Of a stretch of 64,000 bases of DNA, positions 2,140-64,000 are shown one piece after another; the first letter of the stretch is position 1; each line of letters starts with the position of its first letter. The notes under the pieces are model-generated. The model did not search any database. It worked only from the letters and a program-made list of their open reading frames with translations, and was not told the origin of the DNA. The stretch comes from Treponema pedis (GTDB lineage Bacteria > Spirochaetota > Spirochaetia > Treponematales > Treponemataceae), in NCBI RefSeq assembly GCF_017161325.1, contig NZ_CP045670.1:1107367-1171366 (forward strand), read 5' to 3'. The position numbers and the translations under genes were made by a program.

Positions 2140-3695
2140 AAACGGTTTTAACTGTAGACTGCGGAACGCAAAGTTTACGCGCAATGATTTTCGATTTAAG
2201 CGGCAACCTTTTAGCTTCTTCCCGTATTCCTTATAAGCCTCATACTACTCCCAAACCGGGCTGGGCGGAACAGGAGGTAAGTGTTTATTGGAATGCCCTT
2301 AAAAATGCAATCGGTTTATTAAAAAAAGAAAATACGGAAGCTTTTAAGAATCTTTGCGGTATGGGTGTTACAACAATGAGGGCAACTACAGTCTTAATCG
2401 ATAAAGACGGAGAAGTATTGCGTTCTGCAATTGTTTGGCTCGACAATAGAACCGCCCGCGGACCGTTTCACCCTAACGGACTTATGCGTGCGGTTTTCCA
2501 TGCGGCAGGTTTATACGATGCGATAGTTACGGTTCAATCCAGTGCCAAAATAAATTGGATACGCGAGCAGGAGCCTGAAATTTGGAATAAAACTTGGAAA
2601 GTGCTTTTTCTTTCAGGTTGGTTTATTTATAAACTTACGGGCGAGGTGTGCGATGCTGCGGCTTCAATGATAGGATATGTTCCCTTTGTAAACAAAAAAC
2701 GGGATTGGGCTGAAAAACCTTCGATTGAACAGCTTTTAATTCCGTTGGAAAAAGAAAAACGGAACAAAATAGTGGAAAGCGGAACTCTTATCGGCCTTCT
2801 TACAAAGGCGGCTTCGGAAGAATTGGGTTTACCTGAGGGTTTGCCTCTTATTGCCTGCGGAAGCGATAAGGCTTGCGAAACCATAGGAGCGGGAGTTACG
2901 GATTCTTCCGTTGCTGCTTTAAGTTTCGGCACAATGGCTACAATAGAAGTTTGCGCGGACAAATATTTTGAATATAAAAAACTTTTCCCCGCTTATTGCG
3001 GCGTTATACCCGGCACTTGGCTTTCGGAATTGGAAGTGTTCCGCGGTTATTGGATGATAAGCTGGTTTAAAGAGGAATTAGGCAAGGAAGAATGTAGACG
3101 TGCGGAAGAGTTGGGCGTAATCCCCGAAACCGTTTTGGATAAACTTTTGGACGAGGCTCCGGCAGGCGGTAGAGGTTTAATGCTTCAGCCTTATTGGGGT
3201 GCAAGTATTTTCGATAAATATGCAAAGGGCAGTATAATAGGCTTCGGCGATGTTCACGGCAGGGGCGATTTATATCGTGCCATCATCGAAGGCTTGGCAT
3301 ATTCTTTGCGGGAAGGTTTGGAAATAATTGAAGCAAAAGGCAAGTTTAAATGTGAAAAGGTTGCAGCTTCGGGAGGAGCCTCTCAAAGCGATGCAATTTG
3401 TCAAATTACTTCGGATATTTTAAATAGAAGTTTGGTGCGATGTAAAATTACGGAAGCTTCTTCTTTAGGCGTTGCAGTTATTACCGCAGCGGGAATCGGA
3501 GCGTACTCTTCCATAGGGGAAGCTGCAAAACAAATGGTTGTTTACGAAAAAGAATTTATTCCGGGTCGGGAGCACAGAGAATTATATGACGGACTTTTTT
3601 CGGTTTATAAAAAAATATATCCGGCATTAAAAGATATTTGTAAGGATATTCAAAAAGTAACCGACTATCCGGAAACCAAAAAGATGAACGAATAA
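2136..3695 (+). CDS. FGGY-family carbohydrate kinase (glycerol/xylulose kinase-like)
   Basis: 519 aa; N-terminal VDCGTQSLRA FGGY signature; GGAGG SD. Confidence 0.85.
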   Translation: MKTVLTVDCGTQSLRAMIFDLSGNLLASSRIPYKPHTTPKPGWAEQEVSVYWNALKNAIGLLKKENTEAFKNLCGMGVTTMRATTVLIDKDGEVLRSAIVWLDNRTARGPFHPNGLMRAVFHAAGLYDAIVTVQSSAKINWIREQEPEIWNKTWKVLFLSGWFIYKLTGEVCDAAASMIGYVPFVNKKRDWAEKPSIEQLLIPLEKEKRNKIVESGTLIGLLTKAASEELGLPEGLPLIACGSDKACETIGAGVTDSSVAALSFGTMATIEVCADKYFEYKKLFPAYCGVIPGTWLSELEVFRGYWMISWFKEELGKEECRRAEELGVIPETVLDKLLDEAPAGGRGLMLQPYWGASIFDKYAKGSIIGFGDVHGRGDLYRAIIEGLAYSLREGLEIIEAKGKFKCEKVAASGGASQSDAICQITSDILNRSLVRCKITEASSLGVAVITAAGIGAYSSIGEAAKQMVVYEKEFIPGREHRELYDGLFSVYKKIYPALKDICKDIQKVTDYPETKKMNE

Positions 3696-9352: not shown

Positions 9353-10945
9353 ATGAAAAAATACATTAAAAAATACTTACCTGAAACCGTTTTCGTATGG
9401 TTTTTAGGCTGTATTTCTTCAGGCTTCAGTATTATCGGCAAATACTATGCAAAAGATGTCCTTGATTCCGTTGCTGCTCTTAACTTAAATCTTTTTTTTA
9501 GGGCGATTGCCGTTGTATGCTGTATTTATGCTGTAGGGTATCTCGTAAACTATATGCATGAAACAATTAGAACAAAAACCGTGCAAAAAACCTTATTGGG
9601 TATACGCTGCGGTCTTGCACAAAAAATATCATCGTCAACATATACCGGATTTCACAAAAAACATACGGGAGAATATTCTTCATGGTTTGAAGCGGATATG
9701 GGGTTAGTTGAACAAAACGGTTTAGTCCCCGTTTTTCAAATTGTAATTTCCGTTTCAGCTTTTATTATTTCCTTCGTATCTCTTATCAGTATTCATTGGA
9801 TTATTGCAGTTCTGGCGGTAATCGAAGGCGTTATTTTATTATTTTTACCTAAACTGTTTGAAAAAGGAATTGCCGCAGGTACTGAAAAAGTAATGCAGAC
9901 TATCGGTGTTTTTACGATACGCTTACAGGATTTACTTTTGGGTTTTGATACCCTTTTTTCGTTTAATAAGCGCAAGTTAATTCCCGAAGAAATTCATACC
10001 GTAGGTACCGAAAGAGCAAAGGATATGGTTAAACTGGTAAAAAAACATATTGTTTCCGCTATAATTATTGCCGCTGTAGGAATGCTGTTTTATCTTTCGA
10101 TAATAGGAGTTACCGGTTATCTTGCAATTAAAGGATTGGTTACAATCGGTACGATATTGGCAACGGCTCAAATTGCCGATACCTTGTCCAAATCCCTTTC
10201 CGAATTTTCAGGATATATTATAAAAATTAAATCCGTAAAACCTGTGTTTGAAAAATTTGAAAGTTTAGAACAGGAAAGTGTAAAACAATTATCGGCGCCT
10301 TCTTTTAAAAAAGATTTTTATATTCAAAATTTAAATTTCTCCTATGATAACGAAGGTAAAAAAATTCTTTCAAATCTAAATATGAATTTTGAATTGGGCA
10401 AAAAATACGGAATTATAGGAGAATCGGGAAGCGAAAAAACCACAATGTTTAAATTGCTTACCGGAATGTTAAATGAATACACAGGCGGAATTTATTATGA
10501 CGGCACCGAGCTTTTAAATCTTGATAAAAAAATCTTGCGTGAAAACGTTGCATATATAGACCAAAACGTTTATATCTTTAACCGTACTATCCGTGAAAAT
10601 ATTTGTTTGGGAAGTAATTTTTCAAATGAAGAATTGGAAAAGGCAATAAAAGATGCCGCTCTTGAATTCGTTATAAAAGAATGCGAAAACGGACTTGATA
10701 CGATAGTCGAACAAAACGGACAAAATTTTTCAGGAGGACAAAGACAGCGTATTGCACTTGCACGGGCTCTAATTCACGGCAGAAAAATTCTTTTAATTGA
10801 CGAAGGAACCTCCGCTCTTGATGAAAAAAACGCCTCCGAAATAGAAGAAAAACTTTTAAATAATAAAGACCTTACGGTTATAATGGTAAGTCATCATTTT
10901 TCGGAAGCGGCAAAATCAAAGTTAGATGCAATTTATAAAATATAA
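9353..10945 (+). CDS. ABC transporter permease/ATP-binding protein with a degenerate Walker A (GESGSEKTT), a likely heterodimer partner
   Basis: 530 aa; TMD + NBD; signature FSGGQRQR, Walker B LLIDEGTSALD; Walker A glycine before Lys replaced by Glu; AAGGAGAAAG SD. Confidence 0.8.
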   Translation: MKKYIKKYLPETVFVWFLGCISSGFSIIGKYYAKDVLDSVAALNLNLFFRAIAVVCCIYAVGYLVNYMHETIRTKTVQKTLLGIRCGLAQKISSSTYTGFHKKHTGEYSSWFEADMGLVEQNGLVPVFQIVISVSAFIISFVSLISIHWIIAVLAVIEGVILLFLPKLFEKGIAAGTEKVMQTIGVFTIRLQDLLLGFDTLFSFNKRKLIPEEIHTVGTERAKDMVKLVKKHIVSAIIIAAVGMLFYLSIIGVTGYLAIKGLVTIGTILATAQIADTLSKSLSEFSGYIIKIKSVKPVFEKFESLEQESVKQLSAPSFKKDFYIQNLNFSYDNEGKKILSNLNMNFELGKKYGIIGESGSEKTTMFKLLTGMLNEYTGGIYYDGTELLNLDKKILRENVAYIDQNVYIFNRTIRENICLGSNFSNEELEKAIKDAALEFVIKECENGLDTIVEQNGQNFSGGQRQRIALARALIHGRKILLIDEGTSALDEKNASEIEEKLLNNKDLTVIMVSHHFSEAAKSKLDAIYKI

Positions 10946-12892: not shown

Positions 12893-12982
12893 AATACGTG
12901 GAGCATATTGGAAAGTTTACTTTGCAAGGCCTTACCTTATTCTATAAGCGTTTTCATTTGCGCTGCGAAAGCACAAAATCAT

Positions 12983-13030
12983 CAATCCTTGACATTCGAA
13001 AATGTCTTTCGGTTGATGATTTTATACCCC
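12983..13030. terminator. bidirectional hairpin terminator between convergent ABC and traB-like genes
   Basis: 10-bp stem aaatcatcaa/ttgatgattt enclosing an inner hairpin gacatt-cgaa-aatgtc, followed by a T-run on the plus strand. Confidence 0.35.
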
Positions 13031-42014: not shown

Positions 42015-42880
42015 GCGGTTTAATTTCTGCAATTCTTAAAATTTCAGCACCGCTTTTGTTTGCGGTAACCGGAGCTCTTATTACGGAATATTCAGGCGCT
42101 CTTGCCGTTTTTATGGAAGGAGCGATTATTCTTTCGGCTTTTTTTTGTACGCTATTTACAATTATTTCAGGCTCTCAAATTTTAGGATTTATTTTTGCTT
42201 CCGTTTTAACCTCGCTGATTCTTTTTGCTTTAGCCTTATTTACATTTAAAACAAAAGCAAATCCTTTTTTAACGGGGCTTTCTTTAAATCTTTTCGCGGC
42301 AGGTTTTGTTCCCTGGGCTTCCGAATTGTTTTTATCGAAGCGGGGTGTTATTTCCTTTGAAGAATTTTTAAGCACGCATAACTTTGTACCCGTAAATAAT
42401 TTTTTCCCGTTTTTTACGGCTTTATTTTTTTCCGTTCTATTGTTTTTATTTTTAAAGTTTACTTCTTCAGGAATTAGTTTAAAATATTCCGGGGAAGCTC
42501 CTGAAGTGTTAACGGCACGGGGAGAAAATTGCGAAAAATATAAAGTGCTTTCATGGACGGCAGCGGGTTTTTTTTCCGCTTGTGCGGGAGCCGTTCTCGT
42601 ATTCCGTCTTGCAGCTTATACGCCCAATATCAGTGCGGGAAGAGGCTGGACGGCGCTTGCCGCGGTTTTTTTAGGTAATAAAAATCCGCTTTTTTGCGCC
42701 GCCGCAGTGTTGATATTTTCTTCCGCAGAATATGCGGTAAATATTATGCAAGGGTCTTTTAAAATACCGTCCGGCATTTTACTGTCGTTCCCTTACGTTA
42801 TTGCGTTGATTTTATTCATAATTTCGCATGCGGTGAAAAAACGGAGGCTTATTTTATACAATGCAGATAGCATTGTATAA
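42011..42880 (+). CDS. ABC transporter permease (BMP-system, second subunit)
   Basis: 289 aa polytopic; ATGA overlap with the upstream permease. Confidence 0.75.
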   Translation: MSGLISAILKISAPLLFAVTGALITEYSGALAVFMEGAIILSAFFCTLFTIISGSQILGFIFASVLTSLILFALALFTFKTKANPFLTGLSLNLFAAGFVPWASELFLSKRGVISFEEFLSTHNFVPVNNFFPFFTALFFSVLLFLFLKFTSSGISLKYSGEAPEVLTARGENCEKYKVLSWTAAGFFSACAGAVLVFRLAAYTPNISAGRGWTALAAVFLGNKNPLFCAAAVLIFSSAEYAVNIMQGSFKIPSGILLSFPYVIALILFIISHAVKKRRLILYNADSIV

Positions 42881-42968
42881 AAACGCTGTCGAGTTTGCCT
42901 TTCGACAAACATCGGATATTATATGCCGTTTTTCAGCTTCGCTTGTTTATTTTATAGGGACGTAGAGC

Positions 42969-55732: not shown

Positions 55733-55816
55733 CCTGTCGAACCGCCCATACACGTTTATTTTAAATTGATATTTATGTTTTAAAAAGAAATCCCCTTGAA
55801 CCTCTTGAGTCCGTTA

Positions 55817-55870
55817 TTTTAACTGCGGGTTTGCCTTTCGGCAAACGTCGTGATTGTATGCCGTTTTTCA
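55817..55870 (-). repeat. inverted partial copy (~54 nt, ~90% identical) of the 165-bp repeat unit found at 63381-64000, flanked by a short inverted repeat (cttgagtc 55804-55811 / gactcaag 55881-55888)
   Basis: Revcomp of 55817-55870 reads gaaaaacggcatacaatcacgacgtttgccgaaaggcaaacccgcagttaaaat, matching the unit core including the GAAA-tetraloop hairpin. Confidence 0.6.
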
Positions 55871-55897
55871 TACTTACAGAGACTCAAGGGATAAAAG

Positions 55898-61012: not shown

Positions 61013-61693
61013 ATGAAAATTATAGCCGTTATGTTGTTTTCTTTTACTTCGGCTCTTATTTTTGCATGGATAATTACGAAAAAAGAAAACTTGTCGATAA
61101 AGCCGTTATTATATATTTTTTTATTTTCATTTTCAGCTGTACTCATATCTATTTTAATTCAAACCGCTGTAGAGTTTTTCTTTTTCGATTTTCTGCGGAA
61201 AGCGGATTATATAAAAATTATTCTTTTCGAGAGTTTTGCAGCCGCAGCTCTGATTGAAGAATTTACAAAAACCGTTATTTTTTATGCCTTTGTAAAATTT
61301 TTGTGGTCGGATAAGATTACTAAGGTGGACGAAAATCTTCCGGGAGAAATGCGCGAGCAAATACGAATTCTTTTATTTCTTTCAATCCTTTACGGACTTG
61401 TTTTTGCCTCCTTTGAAACTCTGGCATATACTGTCCGCGAGGGAAAATTTATTTGGGCACGTCTTTTTACCTCAAATTTTTTACATGCGGCATTCGGCAT
61501 TTATTATTTGCAAATAAGTATGAGCCGCAAATTTAAAAAAACGATTTTACCTTTTTTTTCCGTTTGGATTTTACACGGCTTATATAATATGTTTTTATCT
61601 ATGGGGATTTTCTTTTCGGTGTTTTCATATACAATTGTTTTATTTTTAATCGGTAATGTTTTAAGGCAATATGACAGATTTAAAGAGAACTGA
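61013..61693 (+). CDS. PrsW-like intramembrane metalloprotease family protein
   Basis: Start chosen at ATG 61013 (MKIIAVMLFSF); motifs EEFTK, FETLAY, NFLHAAFG; multi-TM. Confidence 0.55.
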   Translation: MKIIAVMLFSFTSALIFAWIITKKENLSIKPLLYIFLFSFSAVLISILIQTAVEFFFFDFLRKADYIKIILFESFAAAALIEEFTKTVIFYAFVKFLWSDKITKVDENLPGEMREQIRILLFLSILYGLVFASFETLAYTVREGKFIWARLFTSNFLHAAFGIYYLQISMSRKFKKTILPFFSVWILHGLYNMFLSMGIFFSVFSYTIVLFLIGNVLRQYDRFKEN

Positions 61694-62492
61694 AAGATAT
61701 TCGGTTTTTTTGCAGAAGTCTTTCAGGATATTCAGCTTTCCAAAAAAATAAACCGTGCGGCGGAGCCGTAGGACCTGCCTCTATGCGGTTTTTATCGGAG
61801 AGTATTTTTTTAAATTCATTTTTTGAAAAACCTTTTTCTTCAAGCCGCAAAATTGTTCCGGTAATTGCTCTTACCATTTTCCATAAAAAAGCGTTTGCAC
61901 AAATTTCAAAAATCAAAAAACCGTTTTCGATAAAAAAGATTGAGTTTTTTATAAATCTGTGTTTACTTACACTTTGGTCTCCGGCTGCGGAAAATGCGGT
62001 AAAATCCATTTCGCCTGAAAGACAAGAAGCCATTTCGTTTAAAACCTCAAGGTCGGGATATCGTCTTATATGAAGACAATAGGGGCTTTCATGCGCAAAA
62101 ACGGTTTTGCCGCATTTTATAAAATAGCGGTAAGTACGCGATAGGGAATTAAAGCGTGCGTGTAAATCCGGAGAAACTTCCGCCGCATTTACAATGCGTA
62201 TATCTTTCGGCAAAATCGAATTTAATGCGGGAATAAAATTTTCAGCCTGCATACTTTTTATATCGGTAAAAAAATTTACGGCTTGCCCTACGGCATGTAC
62301 CCCGGAATCCGTTCTGCCGGAGCCTATTGTTTCTATATTTCGTTTATGGATTTTAAAAAGAGCTTTTTCCAATTCGCCCTGTATCGTTCGATAGGTTTCA
62401 TTCCCGTTCTTTGTCTGTTTTTGCCAACCGCAAAAATCGGAGCCGTCATAAGAAACGGTTAAAAGAATATTACGCAAATCTTCGGACTTCAT
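61680..62492 (-). CDS. truA: tRNA pseudouridine(38-40) synthase
   Basis: SYDGSDFCGWQKQ and GRTDSGVHA motifs. Confidence 0.9.
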   Translation of the reverse strand: MKSEDLRNILLTVSYDGSDFCGWQKQTKNGNETYRTIQGELEKALFKIHKRNIETIGSGRTDSGVHAVGQAVNFFTDIKSMQAENFIPALNSILPKDIRIVNAAEVSPDLHARFNSLSRTYRYFIKCGKTVFAHESPYCLHIRRYPDLEVLNEMASCLSGEMDFTAFSAAGDQSVSKHRFIKNSIFFIENGFLIFEICANAFLWKMVRAITGTILRLEEKGFSKNEFKKILSDKNRIEAGPTAPPHGLFFWKAEYPERLLQKNRISFSSL

Positions 62493-63373
62493 TATTCTTC
62501 GTCCGTTTCTTTTAATTCTACTTTTAAAGCGTCATAAAGGTCTCGTGCAGCCTCTAAAAGAGGACCGGGTTTTGATTTACTCGATTTTCCAAGCCCGAAC
62601 ATTTTTGCTAAAGCAAATTTTTGATACTCCATACGCTTTAATCTTGCTTCCATATCGGTTTTTTGACCGTACTTATACTCAAGTAAGGCAGAAAGATAAA
62701 TAATACCGTCATAACCGTAATTTTTATCAACATCGGGACCGAAAGATTTTAAACCTGCAATAATTTCTTTTCCGCCGCTTTCAAGCTCCAAGGCTCGTCT
62801 GTATAAAAAAGTCGCTTTCCGGTAAAACACATCGGAAACATATTTATAATTTTCTTCAGGGTATTTTTTCCCCAAATCGTCAAAAAGCCAAGCGGCTCTT
62901 ATTGAAGAAATTGCCTGCTTTATTGTGGGCGAAAATTTTTCTTCAAAAAGTTCGTAACACAAAATTGCCAAATAGTATGAAGCGGCTCCCTCATTTAAAC
63001 CTCTGGACTTGGAAAAATCCACATTATGAAAAAGCCTCTTTATTGAAGTATAGCGGGCTTCCATTTCATCAAACAGTTTTTCAATTACCGGTTTTGAAGG
63101 AATATTAAAGTCTTGAGGAAAGGCTGTAAAAAGGCATTTAGGACAAACCGTAAGATTATAAATTGCCGGATATACTTCGCCGTACTTTGCGGAAGGTTCG
63201 TATAAACGCCTAAGCTCATCGGTTAAATCTCCGGCAATCAATCTTCCCCCGCCTGAATGAAGTTCTTCCCGTTTAAATTTTGTATGGCATACGGGACATT
63301 CGATTTGTTCTTTAGAATAAAACGTAATACTTCCCGTTTTGGTTTCTTTTTCGGAATGTTTTCTTCCTAACAT
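62492..63373 (-). CDS. hypothetical zinc-ribbon (CxxC...CxxC) protein, DUF2225-like
   Basis: 293 aa; CPVC...CPKC N-terminal pairs; GGAAG SD; its 5' end abuts the repeat array. Confidence 0.5.
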   Translation of the reverse strand: MLGRKHSEKETKTGSITFYSKEQIECPVCHTKFKREELHSGGGRLIAGDLTDELRRLYEPSAKYGEVYPAIYNLTVCPKCLFTAFPQDFNIPSKPVIEKLFDEMEARYTSIKRLFHNVDFSKSRGLNEGAASYYLAILCYELFEEKFSPTIKQAISSIRAAWLFDDLGKKYPEENYKYVSDVFYRKATFLYRRALELESGGKEIIAGLKSFGPDVDKNYGYDGIIYLSALLEYKYGQKTDMEARLKRMEYQKFALAKMFGLGKSSKSKPGPLLEAARDLYDALKVELKETDEE

Positions 63374-63380
63374 GATATTC

Positions 63381-64000
63381 TCCCTATAAATTCATCAAGC
63401 GCAGATTTTATCAAAAATCGAGCATTGATGAATTTCCGCCGTTTTGCAAGAGCAGCTGAAAAACGGCATACAATCCCGACGTTTGCCGAAAGGCGAACTC
63501 GCAGTTAAAATTAAGCGACGCTATCTTAGGAGCTTAATTTTAACCTCCCTATAAAATAAACAAGCGCAGAAAATATCAATTTTCGAGCATTGTTTATTTT
63601 CCGCCGTTTTGCAACGGAGTGAAAAACGGCATATAATACACGATGTTTGCCGAAAGGCAAACTCGCAGTTAAAATTAAGCGACGCTATCTTAGGAGCTTA
63701 ATTTTAACCTCCCTATAAAATAAACAAGCGCAGATTTTATCAAAAATCGAGCATTGATGAATTTCCATCGTTTTGCAAGCACAGCTGAAAAACGGCATAT
63801 AATACACGACGTTTGCCGAAAGGCGAACTCGCAGTTAAAATTAAGCGACGCTATCTTAGGAGCTTAATTTTAACCTCCCTATAAATTCATCAAGCGCAGA
63901 TTTTATCAAAAATCGAGCATTGATGAATTTCCGCCGTTTTACAACGGAGTGAGAAACGGCATATAATATACGATGTTTGCCGAAAGACAAACTCGGCAGT
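63381..64000 (+). repeat. tandem array of at least 4 copies (unit 164-166 bp, ~85-95% identity, copy starts 63381/63546/63710/63876) of a structured repeat; array continues beyond the window. Each unit carries a promoter-like TTGCAA-17/19-TATAAT, a GAAA-tetraloop hairpin, a 12-bp hairpin and a 10-bp stem with compensatory substitutions.
   Basis: Direct comparison of copies. Stem aattcatcaa/ttgatgaatt (copies 1, 4) is replaced by aaataaacaa/ttgtttattt (copy 2). Inner stem gatttt/aaaatc becomes gaaaat/attttc. Hairpin gtttgcc-GAAA-ggcaaac. Stem ttaaaattaagc/gcttaattttaa encloses a taggag loop. Confidence 0.85.

Follow-up and report, generated by a model that had tools for sequence, protein, structure and literature searches.

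Several families of structured intergenic repeats that are co-transcribed with genes have been described in bacteria, among them Correia (Neisseria), ERIC, BOX and RUP (Streptococcus), REP/BIME and bcr1 (Bacillus cereus group), some of which carry promoters or affect mRNA stability. To our knowledge, no described repeat sits exactly at ribosome-binding sites, as the Treponema element considered here does. Two Treponema motifs, TD-1 and TD-2, were described by Weinberg et al. in 2007, who left their function open, stated that TD-1 was found only in T. denticola, and drew attention to seven TD-1 instances that overlap TD-2 in reverse complement (PMC1950547). Rfam places both in clan CL00124, annotating TD-1 (RF03155) as cis-regulatory and typing TD-2 (RF03162) as an sRNA. 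A literature search returned no experimental work on TD-1 or TD-2, and neither a description of a T. pedis repeat nor one of a repeat that targets Shine-Dalgarno (SD) sequences.

The window analyzed here is a 64,000-nt (64-kb) stretch of Treponema pedis DNA. Tandem Repeats Finder reported an array at positions 63380-64000 with a period of 164, 3.8 copies, 88% matches and a score of 981, and no other tandem repeat of comparable kind within the 64-kb window. The original prediction of a head-to-tail array of 164-166-bp units that is still running at the window edge is therefore correct, as is its placement against the start of a DUF2225 gene, whose ATG (63373, minus strand) lies 6 nt beyond the end of the array. 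The array and the genes that follow it comprise these features:

63874..64000, minus strand: unit 4, cut by the window edge; Rfam TD-1 at 63879-63999, 73.7 bits, model positions 7-120
63708..63878, minus strand: unit 3, chimeric; Rfam TD-1 at 63713-63840, 62.2 bits, E = 1.2e-09, with mismatches marked in H3
63544..63712, minus strand: unit 2, the best-preserved copy; Rfam TD-1 at 63549-63674 (minus strand), 97.4 bits; TD-2 at 63608-63712 (plus strand), 48.3 bits
63709-63667, 63666-63640, 63630-63603 and 63600-63553, minus strand: hairpins H0, H1, H2 and H3 of unit 2
63639-63631, minus strand: conserved single-stranded linker of unit 2, UGUAUUAUA, from the family ATTRTATG core
63549-63544, minus strand: GGGAGG of unit 2
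63381..63548, minus strand: unit 1, a full TD element (H0-H3) and gene-proximal; Rfam TD-1 at 63384-63510, 78.3 bits; nhmmer unit match 63548-63380
63380..63384, minus strand: GGGAG, the SD of DUF2225 and the last 5 nt of the repeat, seen in the sequence 6 nt before ATG 63373
62492..63373, minus strand: DUF2225 gene (ORF list; Pfam PF09986, E = 1.9e-58), its 5' region occupied by the array
61680-62492, minus strand: truA, directly after DUF2225 (Pfam PseudoU_synth_1)

Each array unit contains four hairpins (H0, H1, H2 and H3), except that unit 4 lacks H0 and the first bases of H1 at the window edge; the T. pedis array starts at AAAAAGGAGG and ends at TAGGGAGAATATCATG. The details of the units first reported hold up in the sequence: an outer 10-bp stem occurs in two forms (aattcatcaa/ttgatgaatt in copies 1 and 4, aaataaacaa/ttgtttattt in copy 2), as does an inner 6-bp stem (gatttt/aaaatc and gaaaat/attttc), and each unit has a gtttgcc-GAAA-ggcaaac hairpin, with a G.U on the plus strand (a C.A on the minus strand) in copies 1 and 3, together with a 12-13-bp hairpin that carries AGGAG in its loop and adjoins CCTCC. 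Copy 3 is indeed a chimera: the arms of its H3 outer stem come from different unit types, which leaves the stem broken, and an identical unit is found in strain L002 at 9491-9671. The short open reading frames within units are not kept from copy to copy, in agreement with the earlier statement that there is no conserved ORF.

The family was not recognized when the array was first noted, and an Rfam scan was proposed. That scan places the units in the TD clan and gives TD-1 matches on the minus strand for all four of them. At the Rfam gathering threshold for TD-1 (64.5 bits), units 2, 1 and 4 are above threshold (97.4, 78.3 and 73.7 bits) and unit 3 is just below (62.2), while the TD-2 matches on the plus strand are all below the threshold of 48.7 bits, with scores of 48.3 in unit 2 (0.4 bits short), 34.5 and 33.7. 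Because of these matches, taken with the overlap between TD-1 and the reverse complement of TD-2 noted in 2007, it is near certain that the array consists of four or more tandem copies of a Treponema TD element of ~160 nt that Rfam lists twice, and that in this window the minus strand corresponds to TD-1 (H1, H2 and H3) and the plus strand to TD-2 (the reverse complements of H2, H1 and H0). The alignment of copies suggests that TD-1 and TD-2 are two views of one ~160-nt element rather than two families. The array units share with TD-1 the same three hairpins, the conserved linker, the genus Treponema and the '5' regulatory configuration' toward genes, the array lying upstream of DUF2225 on the same strand and ending 6 nt before its ATG. 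They differ in that TD-1 is a single element, whereas T. pedis carries 3-8 units in tandem, and in that the full repeat has a fourth hairpin, H0, and flanking GGAG cores, all absent from the Rfam TD-1 model. The units are thus a rediscovery of Rfam families that date from 2007 and have been without a function for nearly two decades.

About 200 copies of the element were collected from T. pedis, T. putidum, T. vincentii, T. parvum and oral Treponema metagenome-assembled genomes. A pattern scan of genomes matched at least 120 loci, nearly all in Treponema, and an HMM built from the alignment gave 203 matches in 120 sources; roughly ten chance loci outside Treponema had no HMM match except for one that was marginal. 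Beyond T. denticola, the element is present in T. pedis, T. putidum, T. vincentii, T. parvum, Treponema sp. HNW, OMZ 840 and many metagenome-assembled genomes, so the restriction of TD-1 to T. denticola has to be rejected; the range of the family covers oral and animal-associated Treponema. The element is single at 111 of 139 sites. A phage origin was considered and rejected, as only 4 IMG/VR loci carry the element, with 2 distinct element sequences among them.

Across these genomes, the element is closely associated with SD sequences. An RGGAG follows H3 family-wide, and a unit's terminal RGGAG lies ~7 nt before an ATG. SD-like cores are found in the 5' flank at 68 of 109 sites, where 7.8% would be expected at random, and at 57 of 83 sites in the 3' flank, against a random 5.6%; the element is bracketed at both ends by SD-like GGAG cores that are direct copies of each other. 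Element and downstream gene share an orientation at 68 of 92 sites (74%), with a median gap of 19.5 nt, and the element faces away from the gene at the other 24/92. Fifty of the 92 sites lie between co-directional genes, where the element fills the spacer (with medians of 38 nt to the preceding stop and 19.5 nt to the start that follows). Of 79 terminal elements, 49 have a long ORF that begins no more than 45 nt past their 3' end, most often at 12 nt. At the locus under study, the ribosome-binding site of DUF2225 is supplied by the 3' end of unit 1, and both the SD and the AUG are predicted to be unpaired in the MFE and centroid folds of the region spanning unit 1 and the start. Ten genes downstream of the element were compared and have nothing in common functionally; among them are transketolase, glycine cleavage P protein, SufBD, chorismate synthase, glycogen synthase and DNA polymerase III delta'. 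The notion that the element marks a regulon was rejected on that basis.

The predicted structure is conserved throughout the family. Folding of one unit gives -55 kcal/mol for either strand, and its z score against shuffles is -5.3 (minus) or -7.4 (plus); the predicted fold of unit 2 has the four hairpins, -55 kcal/mol and z = -5.3. Among 93 distinct members, 87.7% of pair cells are paired, compared with 69.6% in shuffles (0/500) and 38-48% in slid structures. Two-sided changes occur at 37 of 53 pairs across the 93 elements, 882 cells are changed on both sides as against 307 in shuffles, and 18 of 19 RNAalifold pairs are compensatory. Covariation in H2 and H3 is as strong as in the other hairpins. 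The H1-linker core is conserved in sequence; the remaining stems merely covary. The earlier inference from compensatory stems to a structured RNA or a DNA cruciform thus stands as far as the changes being truly compensatory and the units highly structured, but an RNA made from one strand is not singled out by them. A loose count of wobble pairs gave 69 G.U against 36 A.C on the minus strand, G.U making up about 2% of roughly 3,300 pairs; when only isolated mismatches stacked between Watson-Crick pairs were counted, the figures became 34 G.U and 30 A.C (p = 0.7), the minus-strand bias was gone, and a strand call from wobble pairs was rejected. A call from folding energy was rejected as well: the plus strand is the more stable in 68/93 elements, by a mean of 2.2 kcal/mol, which is opposite to the loose wobble count and is probably caused by GNRA loop bonuses.

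Copy number and presence both vary. Extension of the array beyond the window, which the original prediction had proposed as a way of counting copies, was carried out through two other strains, L001 and L002, whose DUF2225 protein is identical to that of the window: the array counts 8.0 units in L001, which are 97% identical, and 3.0 in L002, as against at least 3.8 in the window. Several draft assemblies break inside the array; this fragmentation at the DUF2225 locus is of concern for Treponema genomics. DUF2225 orthologues in three relatives (90%, 79% and 78% identity) have no TD element upstream, a comparison weakened by the different upstream neighbors of the gene in those relatives. A blastn search with flanking sequence yielded a clean filled/empty pair in which a filled T. 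putidum site (L054), ctTAGGAGG[161 nt]GGGAGTATATG, corresponds to an orthologous empty site (L061), ctGAGGAGGGAATATATG, the 161-nt insertion lying inside the SD. This is the only pair with both flanks conserved, a follow-up tblastx search having returned filled/filled pairs and no further filled/empty ones, and a deletion between two GGAG copies would look the same.

It is well supported that TD is an intergenic repeat of modular, hairpin-rich build, scattered in many copies through the genomes of oral and animal-associated Treponema, and equally that its presence differs between species and that it sits, or lands, exactly at a gene's ribosome-binding site. The array is probably best explained as the tandem amplification of a structured repeat that is mobile and associated with SDs. 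On landing, the left GGAG would stay behind, and the new RGGAG at the 3' end of the element would serve the gene; in T. pedis, one insertion upstream of DUF2225-truA has probably then been amplified by unequal recombination to 3-8 units. The array would be transcribed with the operon as a long 5' leader of four-hairpin modules, in which only the last GGGAG would be followed by a start codon. The hairpins may be kept because the element needs a single-stranded form, whether for its own spread (as ssDNA or RNA seen by a putative recombinase), for mRNA stability or processing, or for both. The H1-linker core looks promoter-like whichever way it is read, with TTGCCT-17-TATTGT in sense and TAYAAT in antisense orientation, and some units may fire either way.

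TD resembles Correia, ERIC, BOX, RUP, REP/BIME and bcr1 in several respects: these repeats are ~100-200 bp long, numerous in each genome and strongly structured, are built of modular or chimeric units, lie in transcribed intergenic DNA and are distributed in a species-specific way. Unlike Correia and other MITEs, it has no terminal inverted repeats; it consists of four separate hairpins rather than one long palindrome, and its ends are direct repeats of an SD-like GGAG. Classification as a MITE was therefore rejected: the unit ends, GGAGGTTAAAAT... and ...TTTATAGGGAGG, are direct and not inverted repeats, a GGAG direct repeat flanks the insertion, and no parent IS was found. A possible lead, by analogy only, is the likeness to IS200/IS605 miniatures and REP/RAYT, which also lack terminal inverted repeats and have hairpins just inside both ends, and which share with TD a fixed 4-5-nt sequence on the left flank that recurs at the right end and a strand-specific use. 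The left and right hairpins of TD differ from those of IS200/IS605 and REP/RAYT in being dissimilar to each other. No Y1 (HUH) transposase turned up among the neighbors of the copies, and tblastn with an IS200 TnpA query gave no match in about 1 Mb of TD-bearing loci. More broadly, no transposase, recombinase or autonomous parent element was found near the copies, where only ABC ATPases recur as a neighbor protein family, and there was no split copy with a 5' part and a 3' part flanking a gene. The attC sites of Treponema integrons are likewise recombination sites that fold as single strands, in the same genus, and the H0 stem of the present array begins GTTAAAA and ends TTTTAAC. Treponema attC sites are, however, 63-68 bp long and clustered next to intI (PMC3607928), whereas TD is ~160 nt and dispersed among housekeeping genes; its GTT/AAC lies at the outer and not the inner stem ends, and other H0 types lack GTT/AAC. 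An integron attC identity was rejected on length, core arrangement and genomic context.

A bolder version of the mobile-repeat reading can be offered only tentatively: TD-1 and TD-2 may be one non-autonomous mobile element of an undescribed kind, which would home to the GGAG core of an SD, duplicate that core and rebuild the ribosome-binding site at its own 3' end. Its target gene may also gain a structured leader, along with a bidirectional promoter-like core, and tandem arrays would arise by repeated integration or by unequal crossing-over at the GGAG core. Confirmation would mean that a "candidate cis-regulatory RNA" is instead a mobile element by which translation-initiation regions are rewired, and would warn against inferring an RNA gene solely from covarying stems.

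The element could instead be a dedicated cis-regulatory leader, that is, a 5' UTR module on the minus strand. A protein would recognize it, or an RNase cut it, at the AUUGUAUG/AUUAUAUG linker between H1 and H2; the module would control how stable the downstream cistron is or how well it is translated, with tandem copies tuning the dose. The above-threshold matches on the minus strand, the co-orientation at 74% of sites with the element ending at the SD, the filling of spacers between co-directional genes at 50/92 sites, the contrast between a sequence-conserved H1-linker core and stems that only covary, and the free SD and AUG in the predicted fold of the DUF2225 start all agree with such a role. 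As the dedicated function of the element it is nevertheless unlikely, given that three relatives have DUF2225 orthologues without it, that the downstream genes have no function in common, that copy number differs among strains of one species, that 24/92 sites face away from the downstream gene, and that G.U shows no excess over A.C on the minus strand under strict counting. A leader role and mobility are compatible and not mutually exclusive; the maintenance of four hairpins across very divergent subfamilies exceeds what mobility usually needs and fits a real RNA function.

The units were originally proposed to be an array of sRNA genes on the plus strand, each with its own promoter-like box; in Rfam terms, each would be a TD-2 RNA gene giving a ~130-160-nt transcript. 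A promoter scan recovered two such boxes:

63609..63637, plus strand: sigma-70-like TTGCAA-17-TATAAT of unit 2, 10/12 matches
63938..63967, plus strand: sigma-70-like TTTACA-18-TATAAT of unit 4, 11/12 matches

In unit 2, the H2 loop contains the -35, and the -10 corresponds to the conserved linker in reverse complement. Units 1 and 3, with 19-nt spacers, fail the scan; a good sigma-70-like box is thus present in two of the four units, 2 and 4. Across the family, a -10-like TAYAAT (at least 5/6) is conserved in 89 of 93 members, and promoter-like pairs of at least 10/12 occur in 28/93 elements on the plus strand against 1/93 on the other strand; the -35 box, by contrast, is not conserved, reaching at least 4/6 at 16-18 nt in only 8/34 elements in subfamily A and 28/59 in subfamily B. 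Also on the side of an sRNA array are the capping of H1 by GNRA tetraloops (GAAA, GCAA) on the plus strand, with a lower energy there in 68/93 elements, and the sRNA typing of TD-2, which unit 2 approaches at 48.3 bits (threshold 48.7). TD-2 is nonetheless below threshold in all units, the -35 is poor in 26/34 elements of subfamily A, and no terminator-like sites were found in the units. The transcription start predicted just before the GAAA hairpin has lost ground: in single elements (111/139 sites) H2 and H3 would lie upstream of their own promoter, and a transcript would leave them out, yet both covary strongly. The TD-2 model itself begins at the -35 box, so that motif and promoter cannot describe one RNA. 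Finally, the orientation of the element follows the downstream gene and an SD on the other strand, and its presence varies by species and its copy number by strain, which is the behavior of a repeat or mobile element. What survives of the proposal is the structured units, the compensatory changes, the chimerism and the boxes of units 2 and 4; that the array is a set of sRNA genes is doubtful in light of the family, the strand, the -35 sequences, the tie to the SD and the variable presence.

A purely DNA-level element, whose palindromes would serve as a double-stranded or cruciform site for protein binding, recombination or replication without a role in a transcript, would account for stems that are nearly all Watson-Crick, for G.U and A.C being equally rare (34 and 30, strict count) and for both strands folding equally well, but is very improbable, as a symmetric DNA function does not produce the strong orientation bias and exact SD placement, and the loops and linkers are asymmetric and conserved. 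Two further array classes were rejected: a ToxI-like type III toxin-antitoxin array, whose repeats are about 36 nt and which precedes, and is conserved with, a ToxN/AbiQ-type endoribonuclease gene, on account of the 164-166-nt units, the downstream DUF2225-truA and the orthologues without an array; and a CRISPR array, as the units run head to tail without unique spacers.

Apart from the array, the 64-kb window contains three partial TD copies:

12935..13023, plus strand: TD fragment, H2-H3 part; HMM E = 2.4e-05, model positions 69-157
42848..42937, plus strand: truncated TD copy with H0, H1 and the linker, then broken off; HMM E = 6.3e-17, model positions 2-92
55807..55872, plus strand: TD fragment with H1 and the linker; HMM E = 6.1e-13, model positions 24-92

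The truncated copy at 42848..42937 sits between convergent ORFs, and the fragment at 55807..55872 between convergent pepF-like and TPR genes; the latter is found in all T. pedis strains examined, at a site common to L001-L006. A second small hairpin element was also seen, inserted at the conserved TTGAT loop of H3 and flanked by TGAT, an observation that points to a family of elements with fixed short target sequences in these genomes.

A single large array occupies the window, at 63380-64000 (Tandem Repeats Finder: period 164, 3.8 copies, 88% matches, score 981), and continues into the window edge. This bears out the original prediction of a tandem array of ~165-bp units, and reading of the sequence confirmed every unit feature it had described: an outer 10-bp and an inner 6-bp stem with two co-varying forms each, a chimeric unit 3, a GAAA-capped hairpin (with G.U in units 1 and 3), a hairpin with an AGGAG loop (stem of 12-13 bp) and TTGCAA/TATAAT-like boxes. 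The array does adjoin the start of a DUF2225-like gene, its end lying 6 nt before the ATG. The family had not been recognised; an Rfam scan of the window yields exactly three above-threshold matches, each of them to minus-strand sequence of the array and each to TD-1 (RF03155; 97.4, 78.3 and 73.7 bits, threshold 64.5). In a permissive scan, chimeric unit 3 scores 62.2 bits with TD-1, below the 64.5 threshold, and TD-2 (RF03162), of the same clan, gives weaker plus-strand matches (48.3, 34.5 and 33.7 bits, threshold 48.7). The array consists of clustered elements of the known TD-1/TD-2 type.

Both motifs were first described by Weinberg et al. 2007 (PMC1950547), who saw them in T. denticola only, mostly (for TD-1) upstream of varied, poorly characterised genes; covariation was reported alongside disruptive mutations, seven TD-1 instances overlapped the reverse complement of TD-2, and no coherent function was proposed (PMC1950547). 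A literature search found no experimental work on TD-1/TD-2 after 2007. TD-1 spans hairpins H1-H3 and TD-2 spans the reverse complements of H2-H0, which argues that the two Rfam families are two views of a single element.

Parts of the TD element, in TD-1 orientation
5' end: GGAG core
H0: stem of 12-13 bp, several unrelated sequence types
H1: CGAGTTTGCC-loop-GGCAAACRTCG, sequence conserved
Linker: single-stranded, ATTRTATG
H2: hairpin 3' of the linker
H3: about 20 bp, interrupted by an internal loop; apical loop TTGATA
3' end: TTTAT, then RGGAG

TD sites and neighbouring features
ATG 63373, minus strand: DUF2225 gene, 293-aa protein, truA directly downstream
42848-42937, 55807-55872 and 12935-13023: truncated TD copies in the window (HMM matches and sequence reading)
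L001 7119-7422 and L002 7935-8254, opposite orientation to the DUF2225 array: TD site between a PC4-like gene and pdxS
L016 about 1925-2000, L036 about 3225-3300 and 3447-3522, also L050, L103 and L104: nested ~71-nt element

Genome searches with a degenerate version of the conserved core gave at least 120 loci, nearly all in Treponema, the hosts among the matches listed being T. putidum, T. vincentii, T. parvum, Treponema sp. HNW, OMZ 840 and many oral metagenome-assembled genomes. An HMM made from 93 distinct full-length copies detected 203 TD copies in 120 sources among the matches listed; the chance non-Treponema loci listed gave no HMM match, one marginal match excepted. Outside T. pedis there were 111 singles, 26 doubles, one triple and one quadruple, and the DUF2225 array, with 3-8 units, is the largest seen. 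Four predicted viral contigs (IMG/VR, L136-L139) carry genuine TD elements (E = 1e-20 to 1e-28), apparently two distinct sequences; these contigs probably represent prophage regions carried by Treponema isolates.

Covariation was tested on a 93-sequence alignment with the four-hairpin structure. Paired cells amount to 87.7%, versus 69.6% in shuffles (0/500) and 38-48% with slid partners; both sides changed in 882 cells, versus 307 in shuffles. Covariation is seen at 37 of 53 pairs, and RNAalifold agrees (18/19 compensatory pairs). Watson-Crick covariation is symmetric between strands, and strand asymmetry was therefore sought by other means. On the TD-1 strand, a loose count with an unbiased hairpin aligner gave 69 G.U versus 36 A.C; restricted to isolated mismatches stacked between Watson-Crick pairs, the count was 34 versus 30. 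Folding energy is lower on the TD-2 strand in 68/93 elements (mean 2.2 kcal/mol), an advantage probably explained by that strand's GNRA loops, and a single unit folds near-equally on both strands (-55.0 and -54.9 kcal/mol). We conclude that TD pairing is selected; an RNA of one strand as the target of selection is not apparent from these data. Of the earlier proposal that selected pairing points to a structured RNA or a DNA cruciform, the selection stands and the strict count favours no single RNA strand.

TD elements are closely associated with ribosome-binding sites. The downstream gene is co-oriented with TD-1 at 68/92 sites (median gap 19.5 nt) and the upstream gene at 63 sites (median gap 38 nt). 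Among 79 elements that keep their 3' end and have no further unit after it, a long ORF begins within 45 nt of that end in 49, usually about 12 nt past the model end, after RGGAG. A Shine-Dalgarno-like core occurs in the 16 nt before H0 at 68/109 sites (7.8% of random windows) and in the 12 nt after H3 at 57/83 sites (5.6% of random windows).

One filled/empty pair has both flanks conserved: the filled site of T. putidum (L054) reads ctTAGGAGG-[161 nt]-GGGAGTATATG and the empty orthologous site of another Treponema (L061) reads ctGAGGAGGGAATATATG. The filled site thus has the element within its Shine-Dalgarno sequence, bordered by GGAG at either end. Upstream of DUF2225 orthologues (90%, 79% and 78% identity), the 141-362-nt intergenic regions gave no TD match, that of the closest (90%) reading ataAGGAGAgggtATG; this case is weaker than the first because the upstream neighbours differ in the relatives. 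In close species pairs, both members often have the TD site occupied. Searches of the TD-bearing loci gave no mobilising enzyme or parent element, so it is from comparative anatomy only that we infer TD mobility. The relative with the 90%-identical protein (L133, 5166-6882) has a Cas9 gene 0.4 kb downstream of DUF2225-truA, and the corresponding T. pedis region has none.

The window's DUF2225 protein matches one assigned to Treponema pedis at 100% identity. The rest of the array was read from contigs encoding the identical DUF2225 protein and, as predicted, it extends beyond what the window shows. The complete 3.08-Mb genome (L001) has 8.0 units at 97% identity, with two runs of three identical units, and L002 has 3.0. 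In L001, upstream pdxS ends in a strong intrinsic terminator, followed by about 130 nt of AT-rich DNA and then the array (start AAAAAGGAGG, end TAGGGAGAATATCATG). Just past the window edge, two tandem units form a second TD site between the PC4-like gene and pdxS, oppositely oriented, so that plus-strand promoter-like boxes (TTGCAA-17-TACAAT) face pdxS. In independent draft T. pedis assemblies and Logan contigs (L003-L008), contigs stop within the TD array or at the TD fragment downstream of pepF, and the repeat thus fragments short-read assemblies of T. pedis; the two Logan contigs share identical 7,573-bp extents.

The best-supported reading is a dispersed, insertion-polymorphic, Shine-Dalgarno-associated structured repeat, tandemly amplified upstream of T. 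pedis DUF2225-truA. The array would most likely form part of the transcript as a leader, its last unit providing the ribosome-binding site; the predicted fold leaves this site free. The plus-strand sRNA gene array first proposed, with a promoter in each unit, is possible for some units: the promoter scan accepts the boxes of units 2 (10/12 matches, 17-nt spacer) and 4 (11/12, 18-nt spacer) and rejects those of units 1 and 3 on account of their 19-nt spacers. It leaves unexplained the H2 and H3 covariation in single elements, the tie to Shine-Dalgarno sequences and the polymorphism. No terminator-like sites were found by the scan of the array. A ligand-specific riboswitch or regulon is disfavoured, as the ten downstream genes tested have unrelated functions.

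Promoter-like signals run in both directions. On the TD-2 strand (window plus), 89/93 elements carry TAYAAT as the reverse complement of the linker, with a -35 box of at least 4/6 at 16-18 nt in only 8/34 of subfamily A and 28/59 of subfamily B. The TD-1 strand carries TTGCCT-16/18-TATTGT or TATTAT (8-9 of 12 matches) in 67/93 elements, and in nearly all members of subfamily A. In gene-proximal unit 1 both the sense and antisense versions are poor. Judged from sequence, the conserved core could act as a promoter in the sense or the antisense direction, as a site of processing or protein binding, or as the recognition site of a mover.

Two of the three truncated window copies sit between convergent genes; that at 55807-55872 is bordered by an 8-bp inverted repeat (cttgagtc/gactcaag) and occupies the same site in all T. 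pedis strains examined. Several TD elements carry, within the H3 apical TTGAT/CTGAT loop, a second small element of ~71 nt (TCGCTATCCGCTTTAGCGGATA...AGAGCCGAAAGGCTCTGAT) that has two hairpins and is bordered by TGAT as a direct repeat; it resembles a further hairpin element that targets a fixed short sequence. Elsewhere in the window, a perfect intergenic (TGCTTGC) x 14 heptanucleotide tract (1238-1335) lies between TTGACA (1210-1215) and ATTATAAT (1336-1343); close to promoter-like boxes, it is a candidate for slippage and phase variation.
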